A model generated the notes under the pieces. It worked only from the letters and a program-made list of their open reading frames with translations, made no database searches and had not been told where the DNA came from. The translations under genes and the position numbers were made by a program. This document shows, piece by piece, positions 379 through 45,908 of a stretch of DNA of 64,000 nucleotides (the first letter of the stretch is position 1; every line of letters begins with the position of its first letter). The DNA comes from Candidatus Kerfeldbacteria bacterium (GTDB lineage Bacteria; Patescibacteriota; Patescibacteriia; UBA10025; JAHIVO01), in contig CP181398.1 in NCBI GenBank assembly GCA_047946875.1, forward strand, positions 1,064,409-1,128,408, read 5' to 3'.

Positions 379-407
379 TTTCTCAACTAATAGTATATAT
401 AAATAAT

Positions 408-1322: not shown

Positions 1323-3296
1323 ATGAATTTAATTATAGCAGTACAAATCTTTGTTAATAAACACAATAAAAAAATTACCATAGGTTTAGTTATTGGGTAT
1401 ATAATTTTTATTTCCCTTCTCTTAATTGCAAAATATAATGCTTTTGGATTTACCGCTCTTGATTTAGGAATATACAATCAAGTCTTTTTTAATACCACTG
1501 AAGGAAGACTCTTCGAAATGAGCATTCATCCACATTCTTATTTAGGGGATCATTTTGAATTATTTATTTTGGTCTTAATACCTCTCTATAAAATATTTGC
1601 CTCTCCGATAACGTTATTAATATTACAAACTATTTTTATTGGTTTAGCCGCGTGGCCACTATACTTAATAGCAAAACAAAAATTAAGTTCCTCCTGGTCA
1701 TTAATGGTTATTCTAATTTTTTTATTTAATCCATTAATTTTAAATTTACAGTTTTTTGAATTTCATATTTTACCATTTGCAATATTTACACTACTTTTTT
1801 CCTTTTATTTTTATTACAAAAATAAATTCACTCCTTTTTTAATTTTTATTTTAATATCAATTATCATTAGAGAAGATGTTTCTTTAGTTATAATAATGTT
1901 TGGTATACTTGCCTGGATAGACAAAAGAGATTTAAAATGGATTCTTACTCCTATCATAATCGGTGTAAGTTGGTTTATTATGGCTATGCAACTTACGGGC
2001 TATTTTAATCAATCTGGAAATTATAAATTCCTTTCAATGTATGGATGGCTAGGCAATAGTATGTCAGAAATGATAAAAAATATTTTTACTAAACCTTGGA
2101 TTTTATTAAAACAAATTTTTAGCTTCAATAACATATTGTCGGTTGTAGGTATTTTCTTGCCCCTTGCTGCGCTCCCATTATTAAAACCAAAATATTTAAT
2201 TCCATCAATTTTAGTTGGCGGTCAGTTACTACTACTTAGTGCTTCAAGTGCAATTATACTGAAGACTCATTATACTTCCCTACTATTACCTTTTATATTT
2301 ATTTCTCTTATTTTTTCTTTGAAATATTTTATTCAAACGACATCTTCAAGAAATAAATTATTTCAATTTTTTATAGAACAGAGAATATTATTCTTTGCGA
2401 TATTTTTTACAGCCATTATCTACTCCTTCTTAACGATTAGCCCTATAATTCCTGCTATTTCTAGCCTATTTAATGAAGATAAAGCCAATATAAAAGTAGC
2501 AAATGAATTAATAAAACAAGTATCAGCTAGTGAGAGCGTTATTTCAAGTTTTAAATATTTACCTAATCTTTCAGATCGTGTAAATGTATATTCTCTACAT
2601 TATGCCTTTTTTGGTAAAAAACAATTTACCGATATAGATTTTGATATCAATGTTCCAATAGATAAAGCAATAATTGATTTTAACGATTACACAATCTATT
2701 ATCTTCAATCAAAGTATTCATCAAATAAAACAGGGCTATACCCAGATGGCGCGGAAAGAATTAAAAATATTATTGCAGAACATAATCTTAAATTAACTTC
2801 TATTACAGACACTCAAGCTATCTTTACAAAAAATGCCTTAACGGATATCAAGCTTATCAATGAAAATATTTTACCAACAATAAATAATATTAATGAAAAA
2901 ATTAATGATAACTTGACGTTGCTCGCAATCAATAAATCTACAAATATTTTTAGTACTTTGCCACTTAAATTTTTCTGGCAAGTTAATAACAAAATTGAAG
3001 ATAATTATTTTATCCAACTTAGACTCACGAACAAAAATAGGGAAATTGAATATAGCAAAATATATCCAATTGGTTATGGGTTATATCCAACTAGTAGTTG
3101 GAAAAATAATATGGCTACTAACTATTGGTTTAGTCTCCCTGATAATTATTCTCTAGATACTTATCAACTCTCTTTTCAAGTCGTAAATATTATTGATGGT
3201 CGTCTAAATCTAGATGGTCAACGTTCAGCCGTAAAATCTATTTATAAATCAGAAAATATTGGTCCTGAAATTATTGTCGATTATAATAATTTATAA
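1323..3296 (+). CDS. Polytopic membrane protein, DUF2079-like (putative GT-C-type glycosyltransferase)
   Basis: Many TM helices. The N-terminal FTALDLGIYNQ…HPHSYLGDHFELFILVLIPLYKIFASPITLLILQTIF resembles the DUF2079 consensus as I recall it (fdlgifdQ…HfsPil…PlY). A large C-terminal non-membrane domain follows. Confidence 0.55.
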   Translation: MNLIIAVQIFVNKHNKKITIGLVIGYIIFISLLLIAKYNAFGFTALDLGIYNQVFFNTTEGRLFEMSIHPHSYLGDHFELFILVLIPLYKIFASPITLLILQTIFIGLAAWPLYLIAKQKLSSSWSLMVILIFLFNPLILNLQFFEFHILPFAIFTLLFSFYFYYKNKFTPFLIFILISIIIREDVSLVIIMFGILAWIDKRDLKWILTPIIIGVSWFIMAMQLTGYFNQSGNYKFLSMYGWLGNSMSEMIKNIFTKPWILLKQIFSFNNILSVVGIFLPLAALPLLKPKYLIPSILVGGQLLLLSASSAIILKTHYTSLLLPFIFISLIFSLKYFIQTTSSRNKLFQFFIEQRILFFAIFFTAIIYSFLTISPIIPAISSLFNEDKANIKVANELIKQVSASESVISSFKYLPNLSDRVNVYSLHYAFFGKKQFTDIDFDINVPIDKAIIDFNDYTIYYLQSKYSSNKTGLYPDGAERIKNIIAEHNLKLTSITDTQAIFTKNALTDIKLINENILPTINNINEKINDNLTLLAINKSTNIFSTLPLKFFWQVNNKIEDNYFIQLRLTNKNREIEYSKIYPIGYGLYPTSSWKNNMATNYWFSLPDNYSLDTYQLSFQVVNIIDGRLNLDGQRSAVKSIYKSENIGPEIIVDYNNL

Positions 3297-4915
3297 ATAG
3301 TTACTTCTTTATTAGAGTAAACATTATCCAAATAATTCTTAGTACTAGGATCATAAGTGCCTAGTGCTTTTTCTTTCCTACCAAAAAATATATAATCAAT
3401 ATTATTATTTATTAAGAAATCATACTTGAGCTCTGATTCATTATCATCTTCCCAAAACCAATATTGATATTCTTTTTTATTTAGCAAATCAACGGTCTGT
3501 GGGCTATGACCAATCCATACCACTCTACCAGAATGAGCGGGTATAAAACTACCCATATATTTACTAGAAAAAGTTATTTCATCTATAGTTATATTATCTC
3601 TTAACCAATGCATGGCATTCACCTCATCTTGATATATATAGTATGGCAGGTCTTTTGCTTTTGAATATAATGTTATATCCTGTCCAATTATTAAAAAATT
3701 TGTCATTGGTAAAAATAATAATAATATCATTACAAAAGCACTATTCCATAAGCTCCACTTACCTCTTTTAGACCTGATCCAATTAAACACAAATAAAATT
3801 CCTAACATAGCTAGAATTGCAATCGGTATGTGCAAACCTTCAGATAAGCGCCTCTGAAAAGATATTGGAACATATATAGCAATAGCAGAAGTAATAAACC
3901 ATGCAACAACGAAACTTTTTTTGTTATCCATTTTTTTGAAGACAGACCATAAGCCAAATATTAACATTGGTATTAAAAGTCCATATCCAATCAAATACAT
4001 CCATACACTAGGCGATGGAAGTATATTTTGTGACTGCCAAGCCCTAATTACCCAATCAGCCTTATTCATTAGATAAAAATATAATACTACTGGAATTGGA
4101 ATCAAGCATAAAACGGCATAATGTCTTATATAAGACCATGTTATCCCCTTATTTCTTAAGAAAATTATTAATAAATAAACAGCCAAAACACCATAAATTG
4201 TTGGACCATTGAATGGATGAAACCATAACATCAATAAACAGGCAAAGCCAGCCAAAACACTATATAAGTATTTATTCTTTTCAAAAGCTAATAACATAAA
4301 CAAAAATATTACTACTATTAATGTTAGAGAAGCTGTTAAATGTGGGGTATGAAAAAGGGTGGAAAAAGTAATACTTTCTGTTACCCAAATATCGGTTGGG
4401 TGTTCATATATATTACCTGTATCATACAAAAAAGGATTAAAAAAAGATCCTAAACCAGAAGAAAATAATATTATCAACAAAATTAATTTTCTTTTTTTTA
4501 TCTTTTTAAATAAGTATGACAAAAACAAATACATCACTGCCACAAAAATAAAAATTAAGATACTACGAACCACATGTATTGATAATAAATTTGACAAACT
4601 AAATATTTTAGCAACCCAACCAACTGTTAACCATAAAGGATTAGTATATATTCGTAATTGATCTTCCGAGGTATATAAGTTAATAAATATATTTTCGTCC
4701 TGCCTTACCTGCTCGATCATAGATAGAAATACATTAGTATCCCCTGGGGCAAAATGATGCAAACCAGTATAGACCATATCTTCTGGCGTACTAAAATAAC
4801 CATAAAGATATGGCACGGCTGTAATAATTACTAATAACGTTGCAATTCCTATTACCAGCCACCACTCTTTTTTATTTACAGATTTTATTAATTCTATCAT
4901 ACAAATAAGGCACAA
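3281..4915 (-). CDS. Polytopic membrane protein with C-terminal extracytoplasmic domain; GT-C-like glycosyltransferase candidate
   Basis: About 12 predicted hydrophobic helices and a ~150-aa hydrophilic C-terminus. It sits in the glycosylation locus. No specific family recognised. Confidence 0.4.
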   Translation of the reverse strand: MCLICMIELIKSVNKKEWWLVIGIATLLVIITAVPYLYGYFSTPEDMVYTGLHHFAPGDTNVFLSMIEQVRQDENIFINLYTSEDQLRIYTNPLWLTVGWVAKIFSLSNLLSIHVVRSILIFIFVAVMYLFLSYLFKKIKKRKLILLIILFSSGLGSFFNPFLYDTGNIYEHPTDIWVTESITFSTLFHTPHLTASLTLIVVIFLFMLLAFEKNKYLYSVLAGFACLLMLWFHPFNGPTIYGVLAVYLLIIFLRNKGITWSYIRHYAVLCLIPIPVVLYFYLMNKADWVIRAWQSQNILPSPSVWMYLIGYGLLIPMLIFGLWSVFKKMDNKKSFVVAWFITSAIAIYVPISFQRRLSEGLHIPIAILAMLGILFVFNWIRSKRGKWSLWNSAFVMILLLFLPMTNFLIIGQDITLYSKAKDLPYYIYQDEVNAMHWLRDNITIDEITFSSKYMGSFIPAHSGRVVWIGHSPQTVDLLNKKEYQYWFWEDDNESELKYDFLINNNIDYIFFGRKEKALGTYDPSTKNYLDNVYSNKEVTIYKLL

Positions 4916-4986
4916 ATGTGTATTACTATGTTATAATTATATCATATTATTACATTTTTTATGTGGTTAAATGCTATAAGATTCAG

Positions 4987-6486
4987 ATGAGTAAAATTTC
5001 TTCCAAAACCAAACTACTAATTATTATATTTGTTTTTTTGATAATCAAACAAATAATTTTTGTATTTGCTGTGCCAGCATGGAACAATCACGATGAACCT
5101 GCTCATTTTCATTACACTCAATATATTGTGGAAGAAAAAAAACTACCATTAAATGAAATCCCTATAACATCTCGCGGTTTATCATTTTCAGAAGCATATG
5201 CTGAATCAGAAATAATCACTGATTCAACCAGAATTATGAGAGGACCCAATGAACAATTTAGATTCTTAAACCAAAGATTTGATGAACAATACTCAAACTT
5301 CTCAACAATAAAAGAGGCCTTAATAAATAAGTCAGGTAAATATTTATCTATTACCGACAACCGAGATGAATATAATGATATTTATTACAAATTACCGCAA
5401 AATAATAAATTCATAAATTCGGCTGCAATCTACCAACCGCTTTACTATATTCTTGAAGCAATACCATATACAATACTTGGCAATCAAGACATTGTCACAC
5501 GTCTATACGCCATGAGATTATTCTCTAATATTTTTTATATTTTAACATTATTAGTATGCTATCTTATTGCAATGCGTATATCTAGAAACTTTAAATTCTC
5601 GTTAACACTTCTACTATTAATTGGATTGCTTCCAGTTTTTAGTCACTTAGTCGCTGGAGTTACAAATAATACTTTACTAATACTGATTGTTACTCTATTA
5701 ATATATTGGAGTGTAAGAGTATTTCAAAATATATCTACAAAGAATGTTATTTGGCTAGGCATTATTCTCGGACTTGGCATGCTTACAAAACCTGAGTTTA
5801 TAATTTTCGCATTTCCTACAATAATTCCGTTTATATACCACCTAGTTTTTACAAAAAAATGCAACATTAAATTGTTACTAAAATATTTTTTATACATCCT
5901 ATTACTTATTATTGTAATCTCTGGTTGGTGGCATTTATGGGTTTATCTACAGCAAGGAAATATTTTTTTAAGCTATATTACACTAGGAGAATCAGTAAGT
6001 ATTTCTATTGCTCAAATCATACAATTTTTAATTAGTAGGTGGATATATGCCTTCGTTAGCTATGGTTATGCTTTCGGGTTTGCCACAGAAATGATATTAC
6101 CTCTTTATATAATTTTTTGTGGTGTTATATTAAGTGCCTTATCTTTTTTTGGATATATTTATAAAACTTTTTTTACTAAAGATAAGATAAGTTCCGAAAA
6201 AAAAGCTATTGGTATATATCTTATTAGCGGTCTAGTTTTTATTGAACTATTCTTTCTATATTTATTTATTAAAACTTTAATTGCAGTTGGATATGCACGA
6301 TTTCCTATTGATGGTAGATACTACTTGCCACTGGTGTTTAATATATCATTTATTTTTTTACTTGGGATTCACTATCTATTACCAAAAAAAATTATAAATT
6401 TATCATACATAATATTAATAGTTAGTCTGCTAATAATGAACGTAATTTCAATATGGGAAATAATCCTTCTAAAATTTTATTTATAA
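4987..6486 (+). CDS. Polytopic membrane protein, DUF2142-like GT-C glycosyltransferase candidate
   Basis: Motif PAWNNHDEPAHFHYTQY in the first predicted loop resembles the DUF2142 DEpaHf motif and the PMT-family fDEvHf acidic motif. It is hydrophobic along its whole length. The likely start is ATG 4987 (MSKISSK), not the track start at 4918. Confidence 0.5.
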   Translation: MSKISSKTKLLIIIFVFLIIKQIIFVFAVPAWNNHDEPAHFHYTQYIVEEKKLPLNEIPITSRGLSFSEAYAESEIITDSTRIMRGPNEQFRFLNQRFDEQYSNFSTIKEALINKSGKYLSITDNRDEYNDIYYKLPQNNKFINSAAIYQPLYYILEAIPYTILGNQDIVTRLYAMRLFSNIFYILTLLVCYLIAMRISRNFKFSLTLLLLIGLLPVFSHLVAGVTNNTLLILIVTLLIYWSVRVFQNISTKNVIWLGIILGLGMLTKPEFIIFAFPTIIPFIYHLVFTKKCNIKLLLKYFLYILLLIIVISGWWHLWVYLQQGNIFLSYITLGESVSISIAQIIQFLISRWIYAFVSYGYAFGFATEMILPLYIIFCGVILSALSFFGYIYKTFFTKDKISSEKKAIGIYLISGLVFIELFFLYLFIKTLIAVGYARFPIDGRYYLPLVFNISFIFLLGIHYLLPKKIINLSYIILIVSLLIMNVISIWEIILLKFYL

Positions 6487-7178
6487 AATCTAAATCATTC
6501 ATTTTTTTAATAATATCTATATTAATATTAATCTTAATATTGGGATATTTATTTATTATAATAAATAATAATAACTACTTCAGCAAGGAAGGTGTGGTTT
6601 TGGGTAATTATAAAGAAATTGAAGAAATTAAATTTCCACCTAATAGTACTATTGAAATTAAACAAGAAATATATAGTCGCCTTGACAATTTAGGTAAGAT
6701 AATAATTTCTCTTAGAACAAATAAGCTTATCATCTTGGATTTAAAATTAAAAAATAAATCTGATAATCAAATTATTAGACAAAAAAGTATATCAACAAAA
6801 TTAACTAATGGCGGTATAGAAATATTAGAATGGATAATAGACCCAATTTCTAATTCTAACAATAAAGATTATATATTACTTATTAGCACATTATCTAGTT
6901 CTGATTTGATATTTTATACGGTCGAACCCGAAAGATATGATGGTGGCAGTTTAATAATTAATAATAAAATTAATGATGATAGCCGAATAATAGTTGATTG
7001 GGAATATTATACCGCAAATCCTCTACAAATAATTTATCATTATCTTCCATTTTATAAGCCTGAAATATTTAATAATGCAGCAACTTATATTATATTAACT
7101 ATATTATTCTTTACTCTTCAAACATTAATAACATGGGAAATATTAAATATATTTCTTAATAAAAATGATGAGAACTAG
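6453..7178 (+). CDS. Hypothetical membrane-anchored protein
   Basis: N-terminal hydrophobic segment (FIFLIISILILILILGYLFII) and a C-terminal hydrophobic segment. Overlaps the previous ORF. Start uncertain. Confidence 0.35.
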   Translation: MGNNPSKILFIKSKSFIFLIISILILILILGYLFIIINNNNYFSKEGVVLGNYKEIEEIKFPPNSTIEIKQEIYSRLDNLGKIIISLRTNKLIILDLKLKNKSDNQIIRQKSISTKLTNGGIEILEWIIDPISNSNNKDYILLISTLSSSDLIFYTVEPERYDGGSLIINNKINDDSRIIVDWEYYTANPLQIIYHYLPFYKPEIFNNAATYIILTILFFTLQTLITWEILNIFLNKNDEN

Positions 7179-8079
7179 TTCCAAAATACTTCAAAAAATA
7201 GGTCAAATTCTAATATATGTAGTTATATTTATTTTTATTGGGAAAATACTTTCAAATAATTGGTCAGACATTTCAGTATCTTTAAAATCAGCAAATTATT
7301 TATTACTACTATCAGGAATATTTCTAATAGTACTAATTTTATATTTACAAAGTTACATTTGGCATCTTCTACTTAAACAATCAAATAATACTCTAAAATT
7401 TTCTGCTTCATTTATTACCTATTTCAAATCAGTTATTACTAGATACCTTCCGGGTGGTATATGGGTATATTTTGCAAGAACATACCTTACGGGTAAACTA
7501 GGTTTTAAAAAAACCCAAATTATTTTTTTGATTCTTATTGAATCGCTTTTTGTAGTTGCCACTGGATCCATATCAATATTATTATTTCAGCCGCCTTCGG
7601 ATATATATATCATCATTGCAATTTTATCTATCATACTTACAATTACTGGATTTGTTTTTATTTTTTCACCTTCTTTTTTTATTAAGATTTATAAAACTTT
7701 CTACAACAAAATACTATCAATTATTCCCCTAAATAGGCAAACCATAGCTAAAGCAACTTCTCTATATTTTATTTTATGGATATTATCTGGATTATTTTTA
7801 TATATTATTATTAACGCTTTTACTCCACTCGGTGTAGATAACATTCCATCATTAATTGGTATTTATGCAATAAGCTGGGTAGTTGGATTCGTTGTATTTT
7901 TTATGCCCTCAGGGATTGGTGTTAGAGATGTTTTTTTGATTATTTTACTAAGCACTATTGTCAGTGTACCAATCGCCACATTAGTTGCATTGATAGCAAG
8001 AATAGTATTCTTGATAGGTGAGATAATTTGTTTTTTTATAAGCTTAATTATTGAAAAAAAACATCCCTTACCAAATTAG
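7165..8079 (+). CDS. Flippase-like membrane protein (UPF0104 / LPG-synthase-TM-like)
   Basis: About 8 TM helices and the motif YLPGGIWVYFARTYL, which matches the lPggiGe..R signature of this family as I recall it. This family is often found with glycosyltransferases. Confidence 0.5.
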   Translation: MMRTSSKILQKIGQILIYVVIFIFIGKILSNNWSDISVSLKSANYLLLLSGIFLIVLILYLQSYIWHLLLKQSNNTLKFSASFITYFKSVITRYLPGGIWVYFARTYLTGKLGFKKTQIIFLILIESLFVVATGSISILLFQPPSDIYIIIAILSIILTITGFVFIFSPSFFIKIYKTFYNKILSIIPLNRQTIAKATSLYFILWILSGLFLYIIINAFTPLGVDNIPSLIGIYAISWVVGFVVFFMPSGIGVRDVFLIILLSTIVSVPIATLVALIARIVFLIGEIICFFISLIIEKKHPLPN

Positions 8080-8099
8080 GCTAAAAGTTTATTTTTTAG

Positions 8100-8777
8100 C
8101 TATTTTTTTAAAATAAAAATATTTGTAGGAAAAAAGAATTGTATATTTTTTAACAGCCACACTGGCCACCCACTAAATATTTTAACCTGACTGTTGAATT
8201 TATTCGGGTTATTTAATATATATGAACTATATTCTTTAACCTCAAACCTTGTGTTAATACTTTTTTTCAGATTAATATAACATGGTAAATCTATATTCTC
8301 CAGAGGCGCTTCAAATCTAATATATTTACTTAAGTACTTTACTATTAAATAATTAATTTTATTTGGAAAATAATGAACAAATGGAATTTTATAATGAGGT
8401 TCGATAGGGAAAATTCTGTTTGGTGAACCAAAATATGCAATTCCACCATCTTTTAAAAGTCGTTTTATTTCATTTATATGTTTTTCATGATTCCCCGTGT
8501 GTTCAATAACCATATTAGAAATAATAATATCAAATGAAGAATCCTGACATTCTACATCCCCACTAATGATATTGTAAAAGTTTCCATCTTTTTTCAATCT
8601 ATAATCACTAATATCTGCATAACTTACTCGATTGTCATTTGAAAAATAATCCCCGATCAACCCAGATCCAGATCCAAGATCTAATATTCTAAAATTCTTA
8701 ACTGATTTACCTAGATAATCTTTTAGAACTGCTTCAATTTTCTTATATTTTATTTCTCGATTTTTTTCTGAATACAT
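8100..8777 (-). CDS. Class I SAM-dependent methyltransferase
   Basis: Motif I ILDLGSGSGLIGDY. A Methyltransf_11-like post-motif reads MVIEHTGNHEKHINEIKRLLKDGG. Confidence 0.8.
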   Translation of the reverse strand: MYSEKNREIKYKKIEAVLKDYLGKSVKNFRILDLGSGSGLIGDYFSNDNRVSYADISDYRLKKDGNFYNIISGDVECQDSSFDIIISNMVIEHTGNHEKHINEIKRLLKDGGIAYFGSPNRIFPIEPHYKIPFVHYFPNKINYLIVKYLSKYIRFEAPLENIDLPCYINLKKSINTRFEVKEYSSYILNNPNKFNSQVKIFSGWPVWLLKNIQFFFPTNIFILKK

Positions 8778-8786
8778 AAAAAATAA

Positions 8787-10507: not shown

Positions 10508-10518
10508 AATCCAATAAA

Positions 10519-11679: not shown

Positions 11680-12827
11680 ATTTTATTATTTATTATTATA
11701 TTTATATCATTTACTAATTTGTTAGCTGCAGTTGGAATATCAAATTTTTGTGCCAATTTTATAGTATTTTCCTTATAAATTGAATATTTGTCTTTTTCTA
11801 AATATGATTTTTGCAACGCATTTGATAAATCACTAACACTATTTGATTTAGTAACAATACCAGCATTATATTCTTTTACCAAATCTCCCATATCCCCAAC
11901 ATCAGTCACAATTAGAGGTGTGTTTTTTTGAACAGCATCAGACATAACTACCGGTATGCTTTCATTAATAGAGGGAATAATTACCCAATCACAATTTTCC
12001 AGATATGTTGCGGCATCTTCTGCCGACGCATAACCTTTAAAAGATATATATTTTTCAAGCTCTAACTCTTTTATTAATTTTATTATATATTGCTCCATTG
12101 TACCAACGCCAAAGATATAAAAATGAACCTTTATATCTTTTGTTGAAGTTATAAATTCAGAAATAGCTTTTATCAAAATATCTACCCCCTTCACTTTTTC
12201 CAGTCTACCAACAAAGGTATAATTTGTTTTATCAGGATTTAATAATATTGAATCATTCTTTTTTGGGAGAACACGACTTGTCGGTAAAAAATCACATTTT
12301 ATTTTTGCTAATTGCTCCACATCCTTTAATAACTGAATCCCATCAGCATAAACTACATCTGCTTTCTGTAATATTTTTTTTGTAATCCCTTTAATAATTG
12401 GGATATTTGAATATATCCAAATATCCGAGCCAAGACACCATACACCATAAGGAATTCCTAACTTTTTTTTCACGATACTTGCAAATTTACCACTTGGAGT
12501 AGCCCAAAGCGCTAAACAAAAATCGATATTATTTTCCTGTACATAATTTAGAATTTCTTTCTTACCACTCCACATTAAACTCACTACTTTAAATAAATCA
12601 AACGGGTTAAAAAAATTATATTTTACCAATGGTTTGCTACCACCCCACCATTCATACCATCGTACATTAATATTTTCATAATCGCTCTTTATCCCTACTC
12701 TATTTGGCGTAAATACAAAAACCTCATGACCCATTTCAATTAATGAAAGCGAATAATAATATGCAAAAGCGGCAACGTAGTCCGACTTATTAATTGGGAA
12801 ACCGTTTGTAATTAAACAAATTCTCAT
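11676..12827 (-). CDS. Glycosyltransferase family 4 (GT-B, Glycos_transf_1)
   Basis: N-terminal MRICLITNGFP…; C-terminal ESIPVVMSDAVQKNTPLIVTDVGDMGDLV retaining motif. Confidence 0.85.
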   Translation of the reverse strand: MRICLITNGFPINKSDYVAAFAYYYSLSLIEMGHEVFVFTPNRVGIKSDYENINVRWYEWWGGSKPLVKYNFFNPFDLFKVVSLMWSGKKEILNYVQENNIDFCLALWATPSGKFASIVKKKLGIPYGVWCLGSDIWIYSNIPIIKGITKKILQKADVVYADGIQLLKDVEQLAKIKCDFLPTSRVLPKKNDSILLNPDKTNYTFVGRLEKVKGVDILIKAISEFITSTKDIKVHFYIFGVGTMEQYIIKLIKELELEKYISFKGYASAEDAATYLENCDWVIIPSINESIPVVMSDAVQKNTPLIVTDVGDMGDLVKEYNAGIVTKSNSVSDLSNALQKSYLEKDKYSIYKENTIKLAQKFDIPTAANKLVNDINIIINNKI

Positions 12828-12850
12828 CTTAATGTTATTTTTCTAAATTA

Positions 12851-13594
12851 TTATTTTTTTCCTACAACAATATATCCTAATGCAAATAGTTTATCTCGAT
12901 CGAATATTTTATCAAGATAATATGCTGGCAAAACAAACAACCATTTGTTAATAAATAGTATTATTTTTTTTAAATATTGTATATGCCATAAAGGTAATAT
13001 TATAATACTCGAAATTTGATGTCCTATAAAACTAAATAACCCTCCCGTTGATTCTAGTAATAATATTTCAAAACCCTCTTTTTCAAGAAGATATTTTAGT
13101 CCATACTGAGTAAAGCGATAATAATCATTTGGTACTTCGTGAAGACGACTCAAATGTGGAACGCTTATTATTATTTTTCCTCCATTTTTTAGTACCCTGC
13201 ACATTTCTGAAATTGCTTTTCGTGGTTCTTTTACATGTTCTAAAACATCAAAATTTAATACTGTATCATATTTATTATCTGGAACTTTTTCCATATTTTG
13301 AATATCCCCTAAATACGTAACTTTTACATCCCTCTCTTCGACATCAAATGTATCATATTGACTTATATTATTTTTAACAATATCTAAATATGGTGCATCA
13401 CCACATCCAACATCAATAACTACTCCCTTCGCATACTTATTAAGAACTGGTACTAATTTTTTATATTGTGATAAAAGAGAAGGAGAAAAATATTTTCTCT
13501 TCTCTATTCCTTTCAATTCTTTGTTAACTAAACGTCTATTTTTTTTAAGTAATTCTTTCATACTAATCCTTCTTCCTTTTCTCTTTCGATTCAT
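12851..13594 (-). CDS. Class I SAM-dependent methyltransferase
   Basis: VIDVGCGDAPY motif I; LNFDVLEHVKEPRKAISEMCRVLKNGGKIIIS. The start may be the internal MKELL (about 13561), which would avoid the overlap. Confidence 0.8.
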   Translation of the reverse strand: MNRKRKGRRISMKELLKKNRRLVNKELKGIEKRKYFSPSLLSQYKKLVPVLNKYAKGVVIDVGCGDAPYLDIVKNNISQYDTFDVEERDVKVTYLGDIQNMEKVPDNKYDTVLNFDVLEHVKEPRKAISEMCRVLKNGGKIIISVPHLSRLHEVPNDYYRFTQYGLKYLLEKEGFEILLLESTGGLFSFIGHQISSIIILPLWHIQYLKKIILFINKWLFVLPAYYLDKIFDRDKLFALGYIVVGKK

Positions 13595-14531
13595 TTTTTT
13601 TCCAAAAATACAACAACCTTTCCTGAGTCAACCTTACTTTATTTATCATATCCGCCAATAGTCCAACTATTAATAACATTAAACCAAAAACATTTAAAAA
13701 CAATCCAACAAAACCTATTGTTTTATATGGAGTTACTAAACCTGTGATCAAAAACCGACCACCAATAAATATATCTAAAATTAATCCTGCTACGAATAAT
13801 AATATTCCGCCCCAGCCAAAAAATTTTAATGGTTTATAATCCAAGGCTGTTCGAAAAATTGTATTAAAGATATTATAGCCATATTTCCATAGACTACTAG
13901 CCATTTTTGAATTGCCAAATTCTCTTTCTCCTCTTACTTCTATAGGCACCTCATGAATAATTAAATCTTTAAATGATAAATTTAAAAACGTTTCGTGTGT
14001 ATAGGTAAACTTACTAAAAAGATTTAAATTTAGTAAAGCTTCTTTAGAATATGCTCTAAATCCACAAGATACATCATAATATTTTTTTCCCGAAATATAA
14101 CTTATCAAATGTGCCACCATCTTATTTCCCCATTTTTTCATGCCTGGCATTTTTGGTATTAATTCTTTATCAATAAATCTAGAAGCAGTTACAAAACTTG
14201 CCTCTTCATTTATTATTGGCATTATCAATTTAACAATATCATGTGGATTAAACTGTCCATCAGCATCTATATTAACCATAATATCGTAATCCCCCTTAAT
14301 AGCCTCTTCAACCCCTTTCTGAAAAATAAAACCCAATCCCATATTATGTTTTAAGCTTATTACTCTTGCTCCAGCCTGTATAGCATAACTCGCAGTATTA
14401 TCTGATGAACCATCATTTAATACTAAAACATCAACCACTGATATATGGTCAATTTTATTTGGAATTTTTTCAATTACCACTTTTATTGATTTTTCCTCAT
14501 TTAATGCTGGTAAAGTTACTAATAGTTTCAT
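13563..14531 (-). CDS. GT2 polyprenyl-phosphate sugar synthase (DPM1/ArnC/GtrB-like) with C-terminal TM anchor
   Basis: LNDGSSDNT and NIDADGQ (DXD) motifs. Two C-terminal hydrophobic helices, as in GtrB/ArnC. Confidence 0.85.
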   Translation of the reverse strand: MKLLVTLPALNEEKSIKVVIEKIPNKIDHISVVDVLVLNDGSSDNTASYAIQAGARVISLKHNMGLGFIFQKGVEEAIKGDYDIMVNIDADGQFNPHDIVKLIMPIINEEASFVTASRFIDKELIPKMPGMKKWGNKMVAHLISYISGKKYYDVSCGFRAYSKEALLNLNLFSKFTYTHETFLNLSFKDLIIHEVPIEVRGEREFGNSKMASSLWKYGYNIFNTIFRTALDYKPLKFFGWGGILLFVAGLILDIFIGGRFLITGLVTPYKTIGFVGLFLNVFGLMLLIVGLLADMINKVRLTQERLLYFWKKNESKEKRKKD

Positions 14532-14550
14532 AAACCAATCAAATCTATTG

Positions 14551-16164
14551 TTATTTATGTAATATATATATCGAATAATTCTCTCCCCCTATTATATCAT
14601 TAAATTGCTCTTTTTTTATATTATCATCAAGATTGTCTATCTTTTGATTTAACTCATGATAATAACGTTCATAATTACCAAGAAATAAAATATCAATTTT
14701 CTTAAGCTTCATAAAATCAAATAATTGATTAATCTCGACGACAAAGGGTACTACATAATGTTCAGCATTTGCGTAATAAGTAATCAAATTATTTGATGAC
14801 ATAATTTTCAGATCACCCCCATAATTATCCTGAATTTGTTGTCCAAATTTTTGGTAATCACTAATCTCTTGTTTCTCCCAAACTAGTATTATCCCTGTTA
14901 TTTGATTATAAAAAGTAGGTAATATCATAAAATTATAAGAGAAAACCGAAAAAATAGCAATTATTATTACTACATACTTCAAATTAATCTTTAAGGGATT
15001 ATAAATTTTATCATTTACATACAAACTAACACTATATATACCCCAAGAAGCTAAAATAATTAACACCGGATATATTGGTAAATAATATCTAATAGGTGGT
15101 TTGGCAAAATAATATAAAAGTAAATATATTGGAACCGCCATTACTAAAAATACTGAAGGTAATAATTTATTAGCCTTTTTACTTCTAAACAATCCTATTA
15201 TAATATATACCAAAACTATAAATAATATTTCCGTTGCGTATTTCAAGTTATAACTAAAGTTTGTAAAAAATAGCTTTACATATACTACCAAACTATCAAA
15301 ATAATTTGACTTGCTTTCACCATTTGATAATTCGTTATTAATTAGATAATCTGTTTCATCTTCATTTAGAGATTGATAAATAATACGCTTTTCATATACC
15401 AAGTCCTCGGCCTCATAATCATATTTATCCATTCCTCTAGAACTATAAGCTTGTTGACCAGTAAAAATTATTAATCCGGTTTGTGAATATAGATATGACA
15501 CATACGGGAACACAATTAATAATACTCCAACGAATATTAATGCAATCCTAATAAAATAATATTTAATTTTTTTTGTTTTTATCATTTCAAATAGCAACCA
15601 TAAAAAAAATAAAAACATAAGTGACAAACCAACTAATCTGATTGAATACGCTAAGCCTATTAACCCACCAATTAAAATAAACCAATACCATTGCCATTTA
15701 TGTTTTATTACCAACCAAAATAATAACAATATTCCAATCAACAAACAGGCAAATAAAGACTCTGTTAAAACTTTGTGTGAAAAAATTATTGCCAATGGAT
15801 CTATTGCAAGTATTATACCTGCGATCATACCTACCTTATGCCCAAACATTTCTCTACTTAATAAATATGAAAATAAAACGATGAGTACACCACTAATTAA
15901 TGAGATCATTTGACCTGTCGTAACTGGATTGTGAACTAAAAAATTAAAAAAAGATATTACTATTGAGTACCCAGGCTGTATTAAATTAGCCATGTTGAAA
16001 GATTCATTTAATGCCAACTCCCCAAAACTAATTTTTTCAGCCAATTTTAAATATAATACAGAATCAGGACTTAAAGGAATATCCGTCACAAAAATAATTC
16101 GGATAGCCAAAGAAAATAATATTAGTCCAATGACCATTAAATTTTCTTTATTTATTTTTATCAT
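14551..16164 (-). CDS. GT-C membrane glycosyltransferase, GT39/GT83-like (PMT/ArnT family)
   Basis: Polytopic. The first loop has SPDSVLYLKLAEK and the N-terminal organisation is PMT_2-like (…GYSIVISFFNF…AIDPLAIIFSHKVLTES). Confidence 0.65.
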   Translation of the reverse strand: MIKINKENLMVIGLILFSLAIRIIFVTDIPLSPDSVLYLKLAEKISFGELALNESFNMANLIQPGYSIVISFFNFLVHNPVTTGQMISLISGVLIVLFSYLLSREMFGHKVGMIAGIILAIDPLAIIFSHKVLTESLFACLLIGILLLFWLVIKHKWQWYWFILIGGLIGLAYSIRLVGLSLMFLFFLWLLFEMIKTKKIKYYFIRIALIFVGVLLIVFPYVSYLYSQTGLIIFTGQQAYSSRGMDKYDYEAEDLVYEKRIIYQSLNEDETDYLINNELSNGESKSNYFDSLVVYVKLFFTNFSYNLKYATEILFIVLVYIIIGLFRSKKANKLLPSVFLVMAVPIYLLLYYFAKPPIRYYLPIYPVLIILASWGIYSVSLYVNDKIYNPLKINLKYVVIIIAIFSVFSYNFMILPTFYNQITGIILVWEKQEISDYQKFGQQIQDNYGGDLKIMSSNNLITYYANAEHYVVPFVVEINQLFDFMKLKKIDILFLGNYERYYHELNQKIDNLDDNIKKEQFNDIIGGENYSIYILHK

Positions 16165-17408
16165 ACTATAGCAACCTTTTCGATTTCTTTTATTTGATTA
16201 TTATTTTGTCTTATTCTTTTTACCAAAATAAATAGTAGCCAGACAAACACCAAACTGCGAACAAATACAACTATATCAAATACATAGTGATCGTAACCAA
16301 AATATCCATATACCAATGGAAAGAACATGAAGTTTAATAAATCATAAACTACTAAGATTATTATTTCTTTTTTGCCAATATTTATTAAGATAAATAACGG
16401 TAAAACCCATATAAACCATTGTGGTGAATAATATGGAGATAGTTGGATATACAACAGCAATACCAATAAAGACCAATTAATAACGTCTGTCTTGGTCTGA
16501 ATAAACTCTTTAAACTTTGTATAACCTGCATATATGATTAATGGCAAGGCTAATTGCATTAAACCAAGTATCTTGGAACCAATCGCCATATACCATTTCC
16601 AAAAACCAATTGAGAAATAATCCCAATTTGCAGAGATAAAAATTGCATAAATTGATCCGTAACCAAAACTCCTACCTGATTGAAAAATATATGGAAATAA
16701 TGCATTCTCAATCCCCGCCCAAATCATTAATATTAATAATACACCAGCTGTTGGCAACACCATTAAATACAACGGCTTGTTTTTGAATACATTGATTATT
16801 TTAATATCCTTCTTAACCAAATAATAAATTAAAAAAACTGGGAATAATACTATGGCATACCCCTTAGCTAAAAATGATAAACCTAATATTACGAAGGCCC
16901 AAGTAAATTTATCTTTTAATAAAAATAATATTGCTAATTGTATTAGCACGGCCGGAAAAATATCAAATCTATTAATTACAAAATATATAAACGAAGGTAG
17001 CATAAACAGCCACAACAAACTACTACTGCGGCCAAGTATTTTTATTAAACGATATGTTAAAAAAATTAGTAGTAATGTAAAAAATAAATTTTGAATAATT
17101 AAAGCATTTTGATACTCTTCTAACGTATCAGCAAAAAAAGCTGGAATTGTTAAATACAACATACCAAGCGCCGGGTATTCTGCTCGAGTATATTCATAGG
17201 GAGTTCCATTATTATAAAAGAAACTAACCCGATCAAAATATACTCCCATCTCATGATCATCCCAAACAAGACTTATTCCGCCCCCCCTAGCTTCCGTAAC
17301 AAATTTAGCCGGTGAGTTCACCATTAACACAAAAACCAAAATAAATAATAATATGAACCCCAAAAAAATTACTAATATCCTATTTTTATTTTCTAAAACT
17401 TTCTCCAT
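16161..17408 (-). CDS. Polytopic membrane protein, DUF2029/GT87-like mannosyltransferase candidate
   Basis: About 10 TM helices. AEYPALGMLYL resembles the fpYpPl motif of DUF2029. Low specificity. Confidence 0.4.
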   Translation of the reverse strand: MEKVLENKNRILVIFLGFILLFILVFVLMVNSPAKFVTEARGGGISLVWDDHEMGVYFDRVSFFYNNGTPYEYTRAEYPALGMLYLTIPAFFADTLEEYQNALIIQNLFFTLLLIFLTYRLIKILGRSSSLLWLFMLPSFIYFVINRFDIFPAVLIQLAILFLLKDKFTWAFVILGLSFLAKGYAIVLFPVFLIYYLVKKDIKIINVFKNKPLYLMVLPTAGVLLILMIWAGIENALFPYIFQSGRSFGYGSIYAIFISANWDYFSIGFWKWYMAIGSKILGLMQLALPLIIYAGYTKFKEFIQTKTDVINWSLLVLLLYIQLSPYYSPQWFIWVLPLFILINIGKKEIIILVVYDLLNFMFFPLVYGYFGYDHYVFDIVVFVRSLVFVWLLFILVKRIRQNNNQIKEIEKVAIV

Positions 17409-17416
17409 AATTATAT

Positions 17417-18997
17417 TTATAAAACTTTATAAATAGACGCCTCATCATCCATATAAACTCGTAAAAACTTATTATACTTTTGGATATTTTGTTCCATCGC
17501 CGTATGATTACTCTCAATAAATATATAATCCGCACCAAAAATATCTTTAATATCTGAATATATATTTTCTTTTTGAACTCCTGTAGTAATCTCTACCATT
17601 TTATGATAAGCCTCTTCATTATACTCATATGTGAAGGTGGGGTCCAAACCAGCAATATAATAATTATATGAATTGTAATAAAACAATATTGGGAATTCAT
17701 CCCAACTTGAATGAAACACAATTTCTCCTGGCTGACTATTTTCCTGCAACCATAATGAAACATTCTTAAATCTATTGATGCTTATTCCACTTTTAAAATC
17801 GTTATGAGTTTGACGGACGTCTTTTACTACTAACATTGGAATAATTATTACAAAATACAAAGCTAAAATAACAAAAATAACCCAATATTTTCTAATAAAA
17901 GATTCAAATTGTCTCCATATATGTAACCATGATATTCTAGCCACAAATTCATTAATAGTAAAAGCGCTAAAAATAATAGTAAATGGAATATAATATTCTA
18001 CATAACGTCTTGACTTTAAAGTAAAAATAAAAAATAATAGATAGATTAAAAACAAGGCTATAGTTTTTTTATTTAGTCTTTTGAATTTATAAACAAACAA
18101 TATAAGTGCAACAACTAAAATAATAGTCATTAAAGCGGTCCCAGAAGTTAAATTAAAAAAATTATAAGGATACCATTCATTACCTACTGGTATTACTGCC
18201 TGCTGATTAATAATCCCTATCTTTACCAGCTGATGCCAATAAAAAACTATATTTTGTGGAAAATATGGATTTATCACTAAACCGGCCAGAATGCCCCCTA
18301 AAGACGCAAAAAACAGCCTTAATTCACGATTGTGCCCTATTACAAAGCCTAAACTACGCTTTTTAGCTCTGAAAAATAAATCTTTAAATATCCCCGCTGC
18401 AGCATAGGCTCCAGCAAATAATAATATCAAAATAAACCCTCCATAAGACCAAACATAAATAAAAGATAAAATAAATAGTGCTAAATACTTATATCTAAAC
18501 AAAAAATATAACCCAATTATTAAAATCAATATTGAAAATACTGGTGCTTTAATCAGATTAATTCTAAAGATAAATGGAGTTGTTATCAATAACAATATTG
18601 TAAACCAAAAGGCAAATTTTACTTTGAACTTACGAAGTAATCCATAAAATAAAAGTACTAACCCAACCGATAATAAAATATTTGCCAATTTTACTCCCAT
18701 GAGTGGATCCATTATTTTTGTAAATGGTATCAAAAATACATGATACAAAAAATGTTGATCAATATATGAATCTTTTAAAATTGTTGTTTGCAACCAGGGA
18801 AATTCTGTAGAAAAACCATGCTCAGGAATTAACATTGCTGCTTTTGCATGATAAAAAGAATCCGGATCAGCTAAAGTTGGAGTTGATTGTAAAAAAATGA
18901 AATATGAAAAACTTATCACTAATAATACGATATATGCGATAATCCACCAATTATTTCTAAAAAAATATGCAACTGTATTTAACTGCTTCATGCTCAT
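17417..18997 (-). CDS. GT-C-like polytopic membrane glycosyltransferase candidate (paralog of 14551..16164 first-loop region)
   Basis: The first extracytoplasmic loop has ADPDSFYHAKAAML, similar to SPDSVLYLKLAEK in the GT39-like gene and to the PMT DEvHf acidic motif. More than 10 TM helices and a C-terminal soluble domain. Confidence 0.45.
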   Translation of the reverse strand: MSMKQLNTVAYFFRNNWWIIAYIVLLVISFSYFIFLQSTPTLADPDSFYHAKAAMLIPEHGFSTEFPWLQTTILKDSYIDQHFLYHVFLIPFTKIMDPLMGVKLANILLSVGLVLLFYGLLRKFKVKFAFWFTILLLITTPFIFRINLIKAPVFSILILIIGLYFLFRYKYLALFILSFIYVWSYGGFILILLFAGAYAAAGIFKDLFFRAKKRSLGFVIGHNRELRLFFASLGGILAGLVINPYFPQNIVFYWHQLVKIGIINQQAVIPVGNEWYPYNFFNLTSGTALMTIILVVALILFVYKFKRLNKKTIALFLIYLLFFIFTLKSRRYVEYYIPFTIIFSAFTINEFVARISWLHIWRQFESFIRKYWVIFVILALYFVIIIPMLVVKDVRQTHNDFKSGISINRFKNVSLWLQENSQPGEIVFHSSWDEFPILFYYNSYNYYIAGLDPTFTYEYNEEAYHKMVEITTGVQKENIYSDIKDIFGADYIFIESNHTAMEQNIQKYNKFLRVYMDDEASIYKVL

Positions 18998-21480: not shown

Positions 21481-21490
21481 ATATAAGTTT

Positions 21491-24186: not shown

Positions 24187-24197
24187 AATTATAAATT

Positions 24198-25577: not shown

Positions 25578-25580
25578 ACT

Positions 25581-26567: not shown

Positions 26568-26573
26568 AATAAT

Positions 26574-27458: not shown

Positions 27459-27463
27459 AAAAT

Positions 27464-28933: not shown

Positions 28934-28936
28934 ACA

Positions 28937-42067: not shown

Positions 42068-42141
42068 CCAACATAGTGGTTAGTGTAAAGAGGCGTTTAT
42101 AATGTCTCTTTTTTTATTTAAGAAATAATTCAGCTGATAAG

Positions 42142-42170: not shown

Positions 42171-42215
42171 AATACGTTCAATAATAAAGCAATATTATAA
42201 AAAGTGGAGGAAATA

Positions 42216-45902: not shown

Positions 45903-45908
45903 TATTTT

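Follow-up and report, generated by a model that had tools for sequence, protein, structure and literature searches.

The window, i.e. the whole stretch of 64,000 nucleotides that was analysed, comes from a Candidatus Kerfeldbacteria MAG (Patescibacteria, GC about 31%) and carries what is probably a hypervariable cell-surface glycosylation island, a reading to which we assign a probability of roughly 0.55. Its GT-C glycosyltransferases would work outside the membrane on lipid-linked donors, and one amino-sugar branch would act via a single one of them, PMT2b. The block is found again in about 80 related genomes (some 85 loci), so it is not a chance feature.

In total 80 GTDB loci were mapped, and the presence of single genes was counted among 63 related loci. 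The gene order RuvC-YebC-PGI-[A1]-variable slot-[A2]-DUF2079-VirB2-like pilins is conserved, and the slot between A1 and A2 holds from 0 to 8 or more genes that differ between lineages, the gene sets being unlike even among close relatives. In the loci L002 and L004 (A1-A3-A2-DUF2079) the slot is empty and GT2 and amino-sugar genes are missing, while L088 and L089 add only the PMT2a/229-aa gene pair, again with no amino-sugar genes. The slot of L007 consists of a GT-C, a GT2 and a flippase-like gene, that of L005 of two GT-Cs, a GT2, a GT4, a methyltransferase and a flippase-like gene. Unknown slot genes elsewhere score as PMT_2, GT87, PTPS_related, GT2, GT4 and methyltransferases. The number of GT-Cs per locus has a mode of 4 and goes up to 8; the multi-GT-C block, which the initial annotation had regarded as unusual, is a trait of the lineage and not a peculiarity of the Kerfeldbacteria genome.

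Positions 1323-18997 are exactly filled by 15 back-to-back ORFs according to the ORF listing of the window, six of which encode polytopic GT-C glycosyltransferases and nine other products. The genes are contiguous and largely co-directional, and stops and starts overlap. The block had been recognised initially, but as fourteen genes, the 241-aa ORF at 6453-7178 having been missed. Families were assigned by Pfam and NCBIfam profile searches, and all functions given below are predictions from sequence and structural models. The three polytopic ORFs at 3281-4915 (A2), 16161-17408 (A3) and 17417-18997 (A1) have no Pfam match. All six polytopic proteins are nonetheless predicted to be GT-C enzymes and not transporters, since three are assigned by Pfam (DUF2079 and PMT_2 twice), A3 by its profile and A1 and A2 by their models; the proposal of at least six GT-C membrane transferases thus holds, with hhalign in agreement.

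The DUF2079 protein (core GT-C no. 1; 1323-3296, plus strand, 657 aa) was correctly named at the outset (Pfam DUF2079, E 1e-57). It ends in an extracytoplasmic domain of about 270 aa and has weak hhalign links to A2 (55%) and MptA_B (62%); its gene is convergent with A2 and is found in 38 of the 63 related loci. PMT2a (GT-C no. 3; Pfam PMT_2, E 1e-11) lies at 4987-6486 on the plus strand, the ATG at 4987 being the likely start of an ORF that opens with a GTG at 4918. Its former label, DUF2142-like, has to be given up in favour of PMT_2, which it matches; the L089 orthologue matches PMT/PMT_2. The orthologue in L088 is 31% identical, and hhalign links PMT2a to the MptA_B family (95%). The product of the overlooked ORF, p241 (plus strand), has no Pfam match and consists of a TM helix, an outside domain of about 165 aa and another TM helix; it is 29% identical to the product of the 229-aa gene that adjoins the PMT_2 gene in L088, and is predicted to be a conserved partner of PMT2a. 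PMT2b (GT-C no. 4; 14551-16164, minus strand) is of the ArnT/PMT_2 type (PMT_2, E 2e-11), aligns with A2 over the full length (hhalign 90.5%), and its start overlaps the stop of A3 by 4 nt. A3 (core GT-C no. 5; minus strand, 415 aa) is GT87/PIG-M-like (GT-C_B type). The original term DUF2029-like stands here in an indirect way, not by a Pfam match of A3 itself but by PF09594 in 4 of 23 homologues, by a profile match to PIG-M (GPI mannosyltransferase I) in the PDB (E 2e-4) and by hhalign with MptA_B/GT87-family neighbours (98.5%).

The acidic motifs noticed earlier are present, all directly after TM1: HDEPAHF in PMT2a (residues 58-64 of the 4918 ORF), SPDSVLYLK in PMT2b (residues 32-40 of the 14551 ORF) and ADPDSFYHAK in A1 (residues 43-52 of the 17417 ORF). 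As the short N-termini carry Lys/Arg, this first loop should face outward, and it is predicted to be extracytoplasmic. A loop-1 Asp is invariant in each of the A1, A2 and A3 family alignments (D46, D59 and D50, respectively).

A1 (core GT-C no. 6; minus strand), the anchor gene of the island, and A2 (core GT-C no. 2; minus strand, with a start 5 codons further in, i.e. 539 aa, in the NCBI annotation) gave models with pLDDT values of 94-95 (95.4 for the AF2 model of A2). As anticipated both are GT-C folds, nearest to STT3/AglB/PglB with the C-terminal domain of AglB included. Foldseek ranks STT3 first for A2 (5e-11), followed by DPY19, AglB and PglB, and the A2 profile matches the C-terminal domains of STT3/AglB and aligns with these proteins exactly across the WWDYG stretch. 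A2 is a distant paralogue of A1 (hhalign 97%); this alignment places an invariant SWDEF (S-W432-D433-E-F) of A1 at the WWDYG position, and the WWD motif is partial in A1 and missing from A2. E274 and R331 are further invariant residues of the A1 family, and loop 1 carries D44-x-D46, with D44 in at least 90% of the members. Like the GT66 enzymes, the two proteins have the 13-TM GT-C_A fold and a small AglB-S-type C-terminal globular domain, and A1 has the D-x-D in loop 1 and the W-D of WWD. On the other hand, they are only about 525-545 aa long, the Pfam STT3 model matches 0 of 41 A1 and 0 of 45 A2 members, and a sequon requirement is not evident. Two unannotated relatives of the archaeal/eukaryotic protein sugar-attaching enzyme thus appear to sit in the conserved core of the island.

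This resemblance, and a GT2 that is closest to AglJ of the archaeal Agl pathway (AglJ, AglS, AglB), makes it tentatively possible that the locus carries out archaeal/eukaryote-like protein glycosylation. A divergent oligosaccharyltransferase, namely A1 and perhaps also A2, would then transfer a lipid-linked glycan to surface proteins such as the adjacent pilins, and GT87/PMT_2-type GT-Cs would extend this glycan on the outer side of the membrane with polyprenyl-phosphate sugars. The pilin-like products suspected upstream are indeed of the T4SS_pilin type: pilinA (348-767, plus strand; VirB2/TrbC-like, PF18895, E 2.6e-9) belongs to the conserved flank and is syntenic in related loci, and pilinB (848-1201, plus strand; VirB2-like, PF18895, E 1.4e-13) has a Thr-rich C-terminal tail (…VVSQTTTVTN), a consensus promoter of its own (779-807) and a hairpin terminator (1234-1259). 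Even the minimal loci have pilin genes after A1, and in these loci a PAP2_3 phosphatase gene also adjoins A1. The pilinB tails are Thr-rich in general, and N-x-T is found in 26 of 90 of them against about 1 expected; however, no N-x-S/T sequon occurs in the tail of the Kerfeldbacteria pilinB or in those of its nearest relatives, and the locus has neither an initiating phosphoglycosyltransferase nor a Wzx gene. The pilin synteny itself may be incidental and simply due to the rigid gene order of small Patescibacteria genomes, since RuvC, YebC and PGI are equally syntenic and clearly unrelated in function. The bacterial-type phosphoglucose isomerase PGI (19085-20155, minus strand; bact-PGI_C, E 2e-24), the conserved left flank with YebC and then RuvC beyond it, adjoins A1 in 61 of the 80 loci.

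It is likewise tentatively possible that the island makes a wall polymer or lipoglycan similar to mycobacterial lipomannan/arabinogalactan, its GT-Cs polymerising and branching a polysaccharide on a lipid or peptidoglycan anchor, with acceptors other than proteins. Glycolipids are the targets of the known members of the MptA_B/GT87/PIG-M group, to which A3 and many slot genes belong. Polymer assembly typically involves a series of GT-Cs, a glycolipid primer could be supplied by the GT4, and NTP_transferase and PGA_cap genes are present in the conserved flank. However, the OST-type C-terminal domain of A1/A2 has no counterpart in known polymerising GT-Cs, and profile searches found no anchor-forming or ligase (LCP) gene in the window. 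The mycobacterial and corynebacterial LM/LAM and arabinogalactan systems (MptA/MptB, PimE, GT87, Aft/Emb) likewise employ many GT-Cs with polyprenyl-phosphate sugars outside the membrane, but the island gathers its GT-Cs in a single hypervariable locus between conserved flanks, belongs to an ultra-small Patescibacterium and has no PI-anchor or arabinan genes.

In the Kerfeldbacteria genome the slot contains A3, the PMT2a/p241 pair and a nine-gene unit that includes PMT2b. Among its products is an LPG_synthase_TM (MprF-flippase-like) membrane protein (7165-8079, plus strand; PF03706, E 1e-15), a candidate polyprenyl-phosphate-sugar flippase whose gene is found together with GT2 and GT-C genes in the L005 and L007 slots and occurs also in L017, L008 and L072. 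The genes that follow are on the minus strand, and methyltransferase 1 (8100-8777; class I SAM, Methyltransf_11, E 1e-12) is the last of their operon. The N-formyltransferase (8787-9536; Formyl_trans_N, E 4e-22) is a stand-alone protein of 249 aa with an intact catalytic signature (INIHPS…DEQIDNG); its PDB neighbours are PurN, Fmt, PseJ and sugar N-formyltransferases, ArnA reaching just 27 bits. The FemAB/GNAT-like acyl- or aminoacyltransferase (9527-10507; Acetyltransf_6, PF13480, 3e-8; FemAB, 2e-5; TIGR03019, 3e-9, below cut-off) has no relative in the PDB and no close one in the metagenome scan. The DegT sugar-nucleotide aminotransferase (10519-11679; PF01041, E 2e-135) is ArnB-like, with ArnB 1mdo as best PDB match (298 bits, full length) and NCBIfam scores of 396 bits for ArnB (cut-off 631) and 380 bits for PseC (cut-off 423). 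It is followed in coordinate order by a cytoplasmic GT4 of GT-B fold (11676-12827; Glycos_transf_1, E 1e-28; best NCBIfam match TuaC, 100 bits, below cut-off) and by methyltransferase 2 (12851-13594; class I SAM, Methyltransf_23/11, E 1e-14), in which hydropathy indicates one C-terminal hydrophobic helix. The only GT2 of the block (13563-14531; PF00535, DAD motif) is of the polyprenyl-phosphate sugar synthase type, with two C-terminal TM helices (234-299); AglJ (138 bits), a Dol-P-hexose transferase, PpgS and ArnC (58 bits) are all matched over the full length and below cut-off. The GT4, methyltransferase, FemAB-like and flippase-like assignments made earlier were thus borne out by profile matches, weak in the case of FemAB, as was the adjacency of DegT, formyltransferase, GT2 and a PMT_2 GT-C in one operon. 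In GC and GC3 the cassette does not stand out clearly against the remainder of the window, and its composition thus gives no hint of recent transfer.

The nine-gene unit would constitute a complete three-component branch. The starting 4-keto sugar nucleotide would come from enzymes encoded outside the 64 kb, in which no enzyme forming it is found. DegT would aminate it, after which either the formyltransferase would add a formyl group to the nitrogen or the FemAB-like enzyme an acyl group, possibly with methylation of the sugar. The AglJ/ArnC-type GT2 would load the product on polyprenyl phosphate, the LPG_synthase_TM protein would flip it across the membrane, and the adjacent PMT2b would transfer it to an extracytoplasmic acceptor; alternatively, the amino sugar could be used by the cytoplasmic GT4 rather than via the GT2. 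The remaining five GT-Cs would use other donors, all jointly building or decorating the same surface glycoconjugate. The acceptor is, as our best guess, a surface protein, e.g. the Thr-rich tail of pilinB, or its glycan, and A1 would carry out the transfer. Three-component systems are well established, and their flippases come from various families (PMC11127046, PMC8035078). As in GtrA/GtrB/Gtr*, CsbB/GtcA/YfhO and the polyprenyl-phosphoribose systems (PMC11127046; reviewed in PMC8035078), genes for a GT2 polyprenyl-phosphate-sugar synthase with C-terminal TM helices, a small polytopic flippase candidate and a GT-C lie together, and the minimal slot cassette of L007 is exactly this trio. The island differs in that its flippase candidate is of the LPG_synthase_TM (MprF) type instead of GtrA, SMR or MATE, its donor is predicted to be an N-acylated amino sugar, and the trio lies inside a frame of four further GT-Cs.

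The initial annotation had gone further and seen one Arn-like polyprenyl-phosphate amino-sugar pathway wired to all six GT-Cs, which would attach the same sugar to different acceptors. The contiguous, mostly co-directional and overlapping genes, the ArnB-like DegT and the single GT2 agree with this, yet we consider it quite improbable. A1, A3, A2 and DUF2079 (L002/L004) and PMT2a/p241 (L088, L089) recur where GT2, DegT and formyltransferase are missing; 1 of the 63 related loci has DegT and 0 of 63 have the formyltransferase or the FemAB-like gene, while the GT-Cs persist. Five of the six GT-Cs therefore appear to be older than the cassette and independent of it, and the amino-sugar branch is a cassette inserted into a multi-GT-C frame that already existed. 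PMT2b and the flippase-like gene are the only ones to travel with the GT2; in L015 and L017, PMT2b is located next to a closely similar GT2 or in its vicinity, so the branch most likely feeds PMT2b alone. The likeness to Arn (PmrF, 4-amino-arabinose on lipid A) stands as far as the logic is concerned, i.e. aminotransferase, N-formyltransferase, GT2 on polyprenyl phosphate and outside GT-C, with ArnB as the nearest solved structure to DegT. It fails for the parts: the window has no ArnA UDP-GlcA decarboxylase or other SDR, no Ugd, ArnD deformylase or ArnE/F, the ArnB, ArnA and ArnC models reach 396/631, 44/777 and 58/529 bits against their cut-offs, the formyltransferase is not close to ArnA, and FemAB-like, GT4 and methyltransferase genes are added. 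A further difference is that the host presumably lacks lipid A.

An ordinary O-antigen/LPS cassette, or transporters misread as glycosyltransferases, can be regarded as refuted: O-antigen loci often contain DegT, formyltransferase, GT2 and GT4, but the host is a Patescibacterium, the 64 kb contain no Wzx/Wzy, WaaL/O-antigen ligase, LPS or lipid A genes, and the matches of the six polytopic proteins are all to GT-C families or folds, never to a transporter, in line with the original view. The island resembles O-antigen and capsule loci in having highly variable content between conserved flanks (here PGI/A1 and A2/DUF2079). Those loci vary in cytoplasmic GT-A/GT-B enzymes with Wzx/Wzy, whereas the island varies mainly in GT-Cs, GT2 lipid-sugar synthases and methyltransferases.

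The locus is best understood as a hypervariable surface-glycan island built on GT-C enzymes, akin to known extracytoplasmic glycosylation systems. A Candidatus Kerfeldbacteria MAG (1.31-Mb contig) encodes a hypothetical protein with 100% identity to one of the window's predicted products. The window has a GC content of about 31% and carries bacterial housekeeping genes (RuvC, YebC, RuvB, DnaA, DnaN, YidC, ValRS, TyrRS and a class A PBP); the only find of the Rfam and tRNA scans of the window was one tRNA-Glu, distant from the island. The initial annotation had described a block of fourteen genes. The block is real, but 15 tightly packed ORFs lie between 1323 and 18997. These are DUF2079 (1323-3296), A2 (3281-4915), the PMT_2 protein PMT2a (4918-6486), the 241-aa protein p241 (6453-7178), an LPG_synthase_TM protein (7165-8079), a class I methyltransferase (8100-8777), a stand-alone formyltransferase (8787-9536), an Acetyltransf_6/FemAB-like protein (9527-10507), a DegT aminotransferase (10519-11679), a GT4 (11676-12827), a second class I methyltransferase (12851-13594), a GT2 with two C-terminal TM helices (13563-14531), a further PMT_2 protein, PMT2b (14551-16164), A3 (16161-17408) and A1 (17417-18997). 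The families were assigned with Pfam/NCBIfam; A1, A2, A3 and p241 are without a Pfam family. The earlier "DUF2142-like" label of PMT2a found no support, as Pfam places this protein in PMT_2. For the FemAB-like protein, the metagenome scan found no relative, and no related solved structure was found.

The six polytopic proteins that had been proposed as GT-C transferases are indeed such enzymes, i.e. each of them matches a GT-C family profile or a solved GT-C fold, which rules out that they are transporters. The assignment of DUF2079, PMT2a and PMT2b comes from Pfam; NCBIfam gave no match for any of the six. Single-sequence phmmer searches of A1, A2 and A3 against the PDB returned nothing useful, so alignments and structure prediction were needed for these three. 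In the PDB, the family alignment of A3 finds GPI mannosyltransferase I (PIG-M; E 2e-4), GT87 is present in some A3 homologues, and A3 aligns with the MptA_B/GT87 genes of related loci (hhalign 98.5%). The A1 profile had no meaningful match in the PDB. The alignment-based models of A1 (pLDDT 93.7) and A2 (pLDDT 95.4) land on STT3, AglB, DPY19, PglB, AftA and ArnT (Foldseek, E 1e-10 to 1e-5). Judged from their sequences, A2 is a distant paralogue of A1 (hhalign 97%, 465 columns), and PMT2b aligns with A2 over the full length (hhalign 90.5%). The LPG_synthase_TM protein, used as a control, showed no relationship to any of the six GT-Cs. PMT2a and PMT2b are not recent paralogues (BLASTP E 0.94).

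The acidic first-loop motifs that were noticed earlier were found directly after TM1. One loop-1 Asp is invariant in each family alignment (D46 of A1, D59 of A2, D50 of A3), and D44 of A1 is conserved in at least 90% of the family alignment. The corresponding residues after TM1 are HDE in PMT2a, SPD in PMT2b and LD in DUF2079. The N-termini of the GT-Cs are rich in Lys/Arg, which indicates a cytoplasmic N-terminus (topology from hydropathy and AF2 models).

The surroundings of the block were compared in fetched contigs and 80 GTDB loci that were annotated by the A1-A3 HMMs and by phmmer with the window proteins. Homologues of the locus were found exclusively in Patescibacteria-type MAGs, and A1, A3 and A2 homologues have consecutive locus tags in other MAGs. 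A near-universal frame is seen: RuvC, YebC, then PGI → A1 → [slot] → A2 (1-3 copies) ← DUF2079 ← pilinB (n copies) ← pilinA, continued by ← a 516-666-aa pilin-related protein ← SBP ← NTP_transferase. A Cys-rich ORF that is cut by the window edge, with its 3' end inside (1-347), corresponds by synteny to the 516-666-aa pilin-related protein. The records of L013, L018, L020, L034 and many other GTDB loci are titled "uncultured Gammaproteobacteria bacterium" (TPA_asm/binchicken MAGs); these titles look like mislabels, since these loci match Patescibacteria in gene content and synteny.

The slot between A1 and A2 varies widely, leaving aside A3 where it is present. It is empty in L002 and L004. 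In L007 it holds one MptA_B GT-C, a GT2 and a flippase-like gene, and in L005 two MptA_B GT-Cs, a GT2, a 725-aa GT4, a methyltransferase and LPG_synthase_TM. L081 has two GT2, two 776-aa PMT_2 proteins, a GT4, a DegT and a NodS-like methyltransferase. The multi-TM slot genes of other loci that were tested with Pfam are PMT_2, GT87 or PTPS_related. In the nearest relatives, L088 and L089, whose A2 is 63-64% identical, the slot contains only a PMT_2 gene and a 229-aa gene, on the opposite strand. This pair is orthologous to PMT2a (31% identity) and p241 (29% identity), and the nine genes at 7165-16164 are missing from both loci. A PMT2a-type gene with a bitopic protein of about 230-240 aa is thus a conserved gene pair (window 4987-7178; L088:7009-9101; L089:7798-9857). 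Proteins of the p241 type consist of a TM segment, an outside domain of about 165 aa and a second TM segment, and match no known family; the conservation of the pair points to a GT-C that works with an accessory subunit.

In the 63 loci that have 8 kb or more of sequence downstream of A1, A2 was found in 46, pilins in 40, DUF2079 in 38, GT2 in 28 and A3 in 19, DegT was found in one, and the formyltransferase and the FemAB-like gene in none. The closed loci have up to 8 GT-C-like genes each (mode 4). These numbers are lower bounds, since long slots extend past the 10-kb flank. The synteny makes the multi-GT-C block a lineage trait and the slot a site that behaves like a hypervariable cassette site flanked by conserved genes. 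It also marks the amino-sugar genes of the window as a rare cassette. Neither GC nor GC3 clearly points to a foreign origin of this cassette.

The initial annotation had read the amino-sugar genes as an Arn-like pathway wired to six GT-Cs. The cassette does follow an Arn-like logic. The best NCBIfam match of the DegT protein is ArnB (396 bits, just above PseC), and among solved structures it is closest to four of ArnB (271-298 bits over the full length), followed by a capsular aminotransferase (245 bits), perosamine synthases (about 218 bits) and PseC (190 bits). The equivalog cut-offs are nevertheless missed: 396 bits against 631 for ArnB (NF008658), 44 against 777 for ArnA and 58.5 against 529 for ArnC. 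The GT2 aligns with the ArnC equivalog over the full length and has the same architecture, whereas the formyltransferase is a 249-aa protein with Formyl_trans_N alone. It retains the Asn-His…Asp signature and is about equidistant from PurN, Fmt, PseJ and the sugar N-formyltransferases; the ArnA structure gives only 27 bits. The whole 64 kb lack SDR and epimerase domains, hence also an ArnA-type UDP-GlcA decarboxylase, and contain no dehydratase or decarboxylase. The block has no ArnD-type polysaccharide deacetylase (weak deacetylase-like signals occur only inside GH57 enzymes) and no SMR/EamA gene for an ArnE/ArnF-type flippase. As an ArnD-type deformylase is missing, the N-formyl group would remain on the product. 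The counterpart of ArnT would be PMT2b, which belongs to the PMT_2 family. To our knowledge Patescibacteria lack LPS; a reading of the genes as an O-antigen cassette was rejected.

The proposed wiring to all six GT-Cs did not hold, because the Arn-like branch is a rare cassette that is absent from the nearest relatives. Most likely it serves one GT-C, and the other five belong to the conserved frame or to older slot content. The cassette represents Arn-like chemistry recruited in an organism without LPS.

The most economical reading of the cassette is a three-component branch as in the extracytoplasmic glycosylation systems described earlier (PMC11127046, PMC8035078). The GT2 is of the polyprenyl-P-sugar synthase type with C-terminal TM helices. 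It has a DAD motif and two TM helices at residues 234-299, and its full-length NCBIfam matches (AglJ 138 bits, Dol-P-hexose transferase, PpgS and ArnC 58 bits, all below cut-off) are all polyprenyl-P glycosyltransferases. The likeness extends to PMT2b, a GT-C co-inherited with the GT2: PMT2b lies directly upstream of it in the operon, with a start that overlaps the A3 stop, and in L015 and L017 the two genes likewise lie side by side or close together. The LPG_synthase_TM gene recurs with GT2 and GT-C in L005 and L007; L017, L008 and L072 have it as well. In such a branch a 4-keto sugar nucleotide would be aminated and then N-formylated, or N-acylated by the FemAB-like enzyme, with methylation also possible. 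The GT2 would load the sugar onto polyprenyl-P (the cytoplasmic GT4 could be an alternative user of the amino sugar), the lipid-linked sugar would be flipped across the membrane, for which the LPG_synthase_TM protein is the candidate flippase, and PMT2b would pass it to the acceptor.

The anchor genes of the island, A1 and A2, form a previously undescribed STT3/AglB-like family. Both share with the oligosaccharyltransferases (OSTs) the GT-C_A membrane fold and an AglB-type C-terminal globular domain. The A2 profile independently matches STT3 8i9p (E 0.0023), 3vu0 (E 0.0064) and yeast Stt3 2lgz in the C-terminal domain, and the HMMER alignment with those STT3/AglB structures spans the WWDYG motif. 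At this stretch A1 reads VFHSSWDEFPILFY and AglB AVLSWWDYGNWILY, the correspondence being transferred via the A1-A2 alignment. The motif itself differs: WWDYG of STT3/AglB reads SSWDEFP in A1, where all 41 sequences, down to 41% identity, keep W432 and D433, and it is lost in A2, where the aligned position is SSKYMGS. The STT3 profile PF02516 matches 0/41 A1 and 0/45 A2 family members at E <= 0.1; when every member of both families was scanned with Pfam, sporadic matches to DUF6541, DUF7649 and DUF7657 were all that turned up. Loop 1 of A1 is D44-P-D46-S-F-Y-H; E274 is invariant and lies in a long late loop after about nine helices, and R331 is also invariant. D44/D46, E274 and R331 may correspond to the D-x-D motif, the TIXE/SVSE Glu and the pyrophosphate-binding Arg of the OSTs. 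The A1 family covers 270 GTDB species and 3,467 clusters at 50% identity (E <= 1e-3).

Patescibacteria might possess a large unannotated family of divergent STT3/AglB-type OSTs, i.e. A1 with A2 as a degenerate paralogue, in which A1 would glycosylate surface proteins such as the neighbouring VirB2-like pilins, while a lineage-specific, fast-swapped set of GT-Cs would lengthen the transferred glycan outside the membrane. We consider this proposal tentative and give it about one chance in four. If true, bacteria would have their own counterpart to the luminal ALG-plus-OST logic, in the form of a surface-diversity locus of epibiotic ultra-small bacteria. Were A1 a protein-acting STT3/AglB-type enzyme, the known range of OST-like enzymes in bacteria would reach far beyond PglB of epsilon- and delta-proteobacteria, and compact tools (~525 aa) for glyco-engineering would become available.

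A PAP2_3 membrane phosphatase gene (E 1e-26 to 1e-30) lies directly upstream of A1 in minimal islands (L023:8957-9889, L034:8962-9942, L039:9052-10020, L041:5146-6057). A possible role of its product is the recycling of polyprenyl pyrophosphate, and this would be in line with a PP-linked donor of A1.

There are hints that the acceptors are proteins. One is the OST-type C-terminal domain of A1, another is that minimal loci such as L034, L039, L041 and L045 read PAP2_3 → A1 ← pilins, although this synteny may be incidental given the rigid gene order in Patescibacteria. The third hint comes from the pilinB homologues (window 848-1201; L002-L087), which carry a Thr-rich outside tail right after TM2, often …TTANVT(T/Q/S), and pilinA is without such a tail. 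N-x-T occurs within the last 12 residues of 26 of the 90 pilinB homologues, as compared with 11 occurrences in 11,351 residues of the protein bodies, a count that overstates the independent support as the pilin sequences are phylogenetically related. The tail of the window pilinB is …SQTTTVTN and that of its closest relatives …KVTT; neither has a sequon, so that any glycosylation of the tail would here be easier to reconcile with O-linkage to Thr. In streptococci, Ser/Thr-rich tails are known to be O-glycosylated in a GtrB/GT-C-dependent manner (PMC12041528). It is equally possible that the acceptor is a polysaccharide or a lipoglycan, as MptA_B/GT87-type enzymes are present.

Between 5 and 9 tandem pilinB paralogues with divergent tails are found beside A1 in L040 (11569-15144), L063, L067 and L068, and one tandem paralogue is a 406-aa protein with a Cys-rich extension, which suggests that the pilins themselves are diversifying. 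In the window, pilinB is preceded by a perfect TTGACA-17-TATAAT promoter (779-807) and followed by an 11-bp GC-rich bidirectional hairpin terminator (1234-1259); these two alone stand out, the other promoter and terminator signals in 20 kb being at chance level.

Patescibacteria are ultra-small, mostly uncultured and attached to other cells, and hardly anything is known of their surface chemistry. Given this way of life, their surface is the main interface with hosts and phages. The locus looks like the Patescibacteria equivalent of an O-antigen/capsule diversity locus, built from GT-C enzymes and lipid-phosphate sugars, and the PGI-A1 … A2-DUF2079-pilin frame provides a widely conserved genomic handle on surface variation in hundreds of species. 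No description of the locus was found in the literature on GT-C, oligosaccharyltransferase, STT3, ArnT or PMT in Patescibacteria/CPR, or in that on DUF2079 and glycosyltransferases.

A glycogen-type cluster adjoins the island (21458-29929) and is conserved and syntenic in relatives. It consists of two Glyco_transf_5 synthases, two GH57 enzymes, a PHP-domain protein and a GalT/HIT-like protein, and together with PGI it may supply hexose phosphates. Further along the window, in a region of slightly raised GC, a 551-aa protein (32476-34131) has a weak match to Phage_depo_C, a phage depolymerase C-terminal β-sandwich (E 2e-5, just above cut-off). The dnaN-dnaA genes are found at 42080-46253 with yidC downstream, and the cumulative GC skew turns near 40-44 kb; the replication origin is likely about 25 kb from the island.
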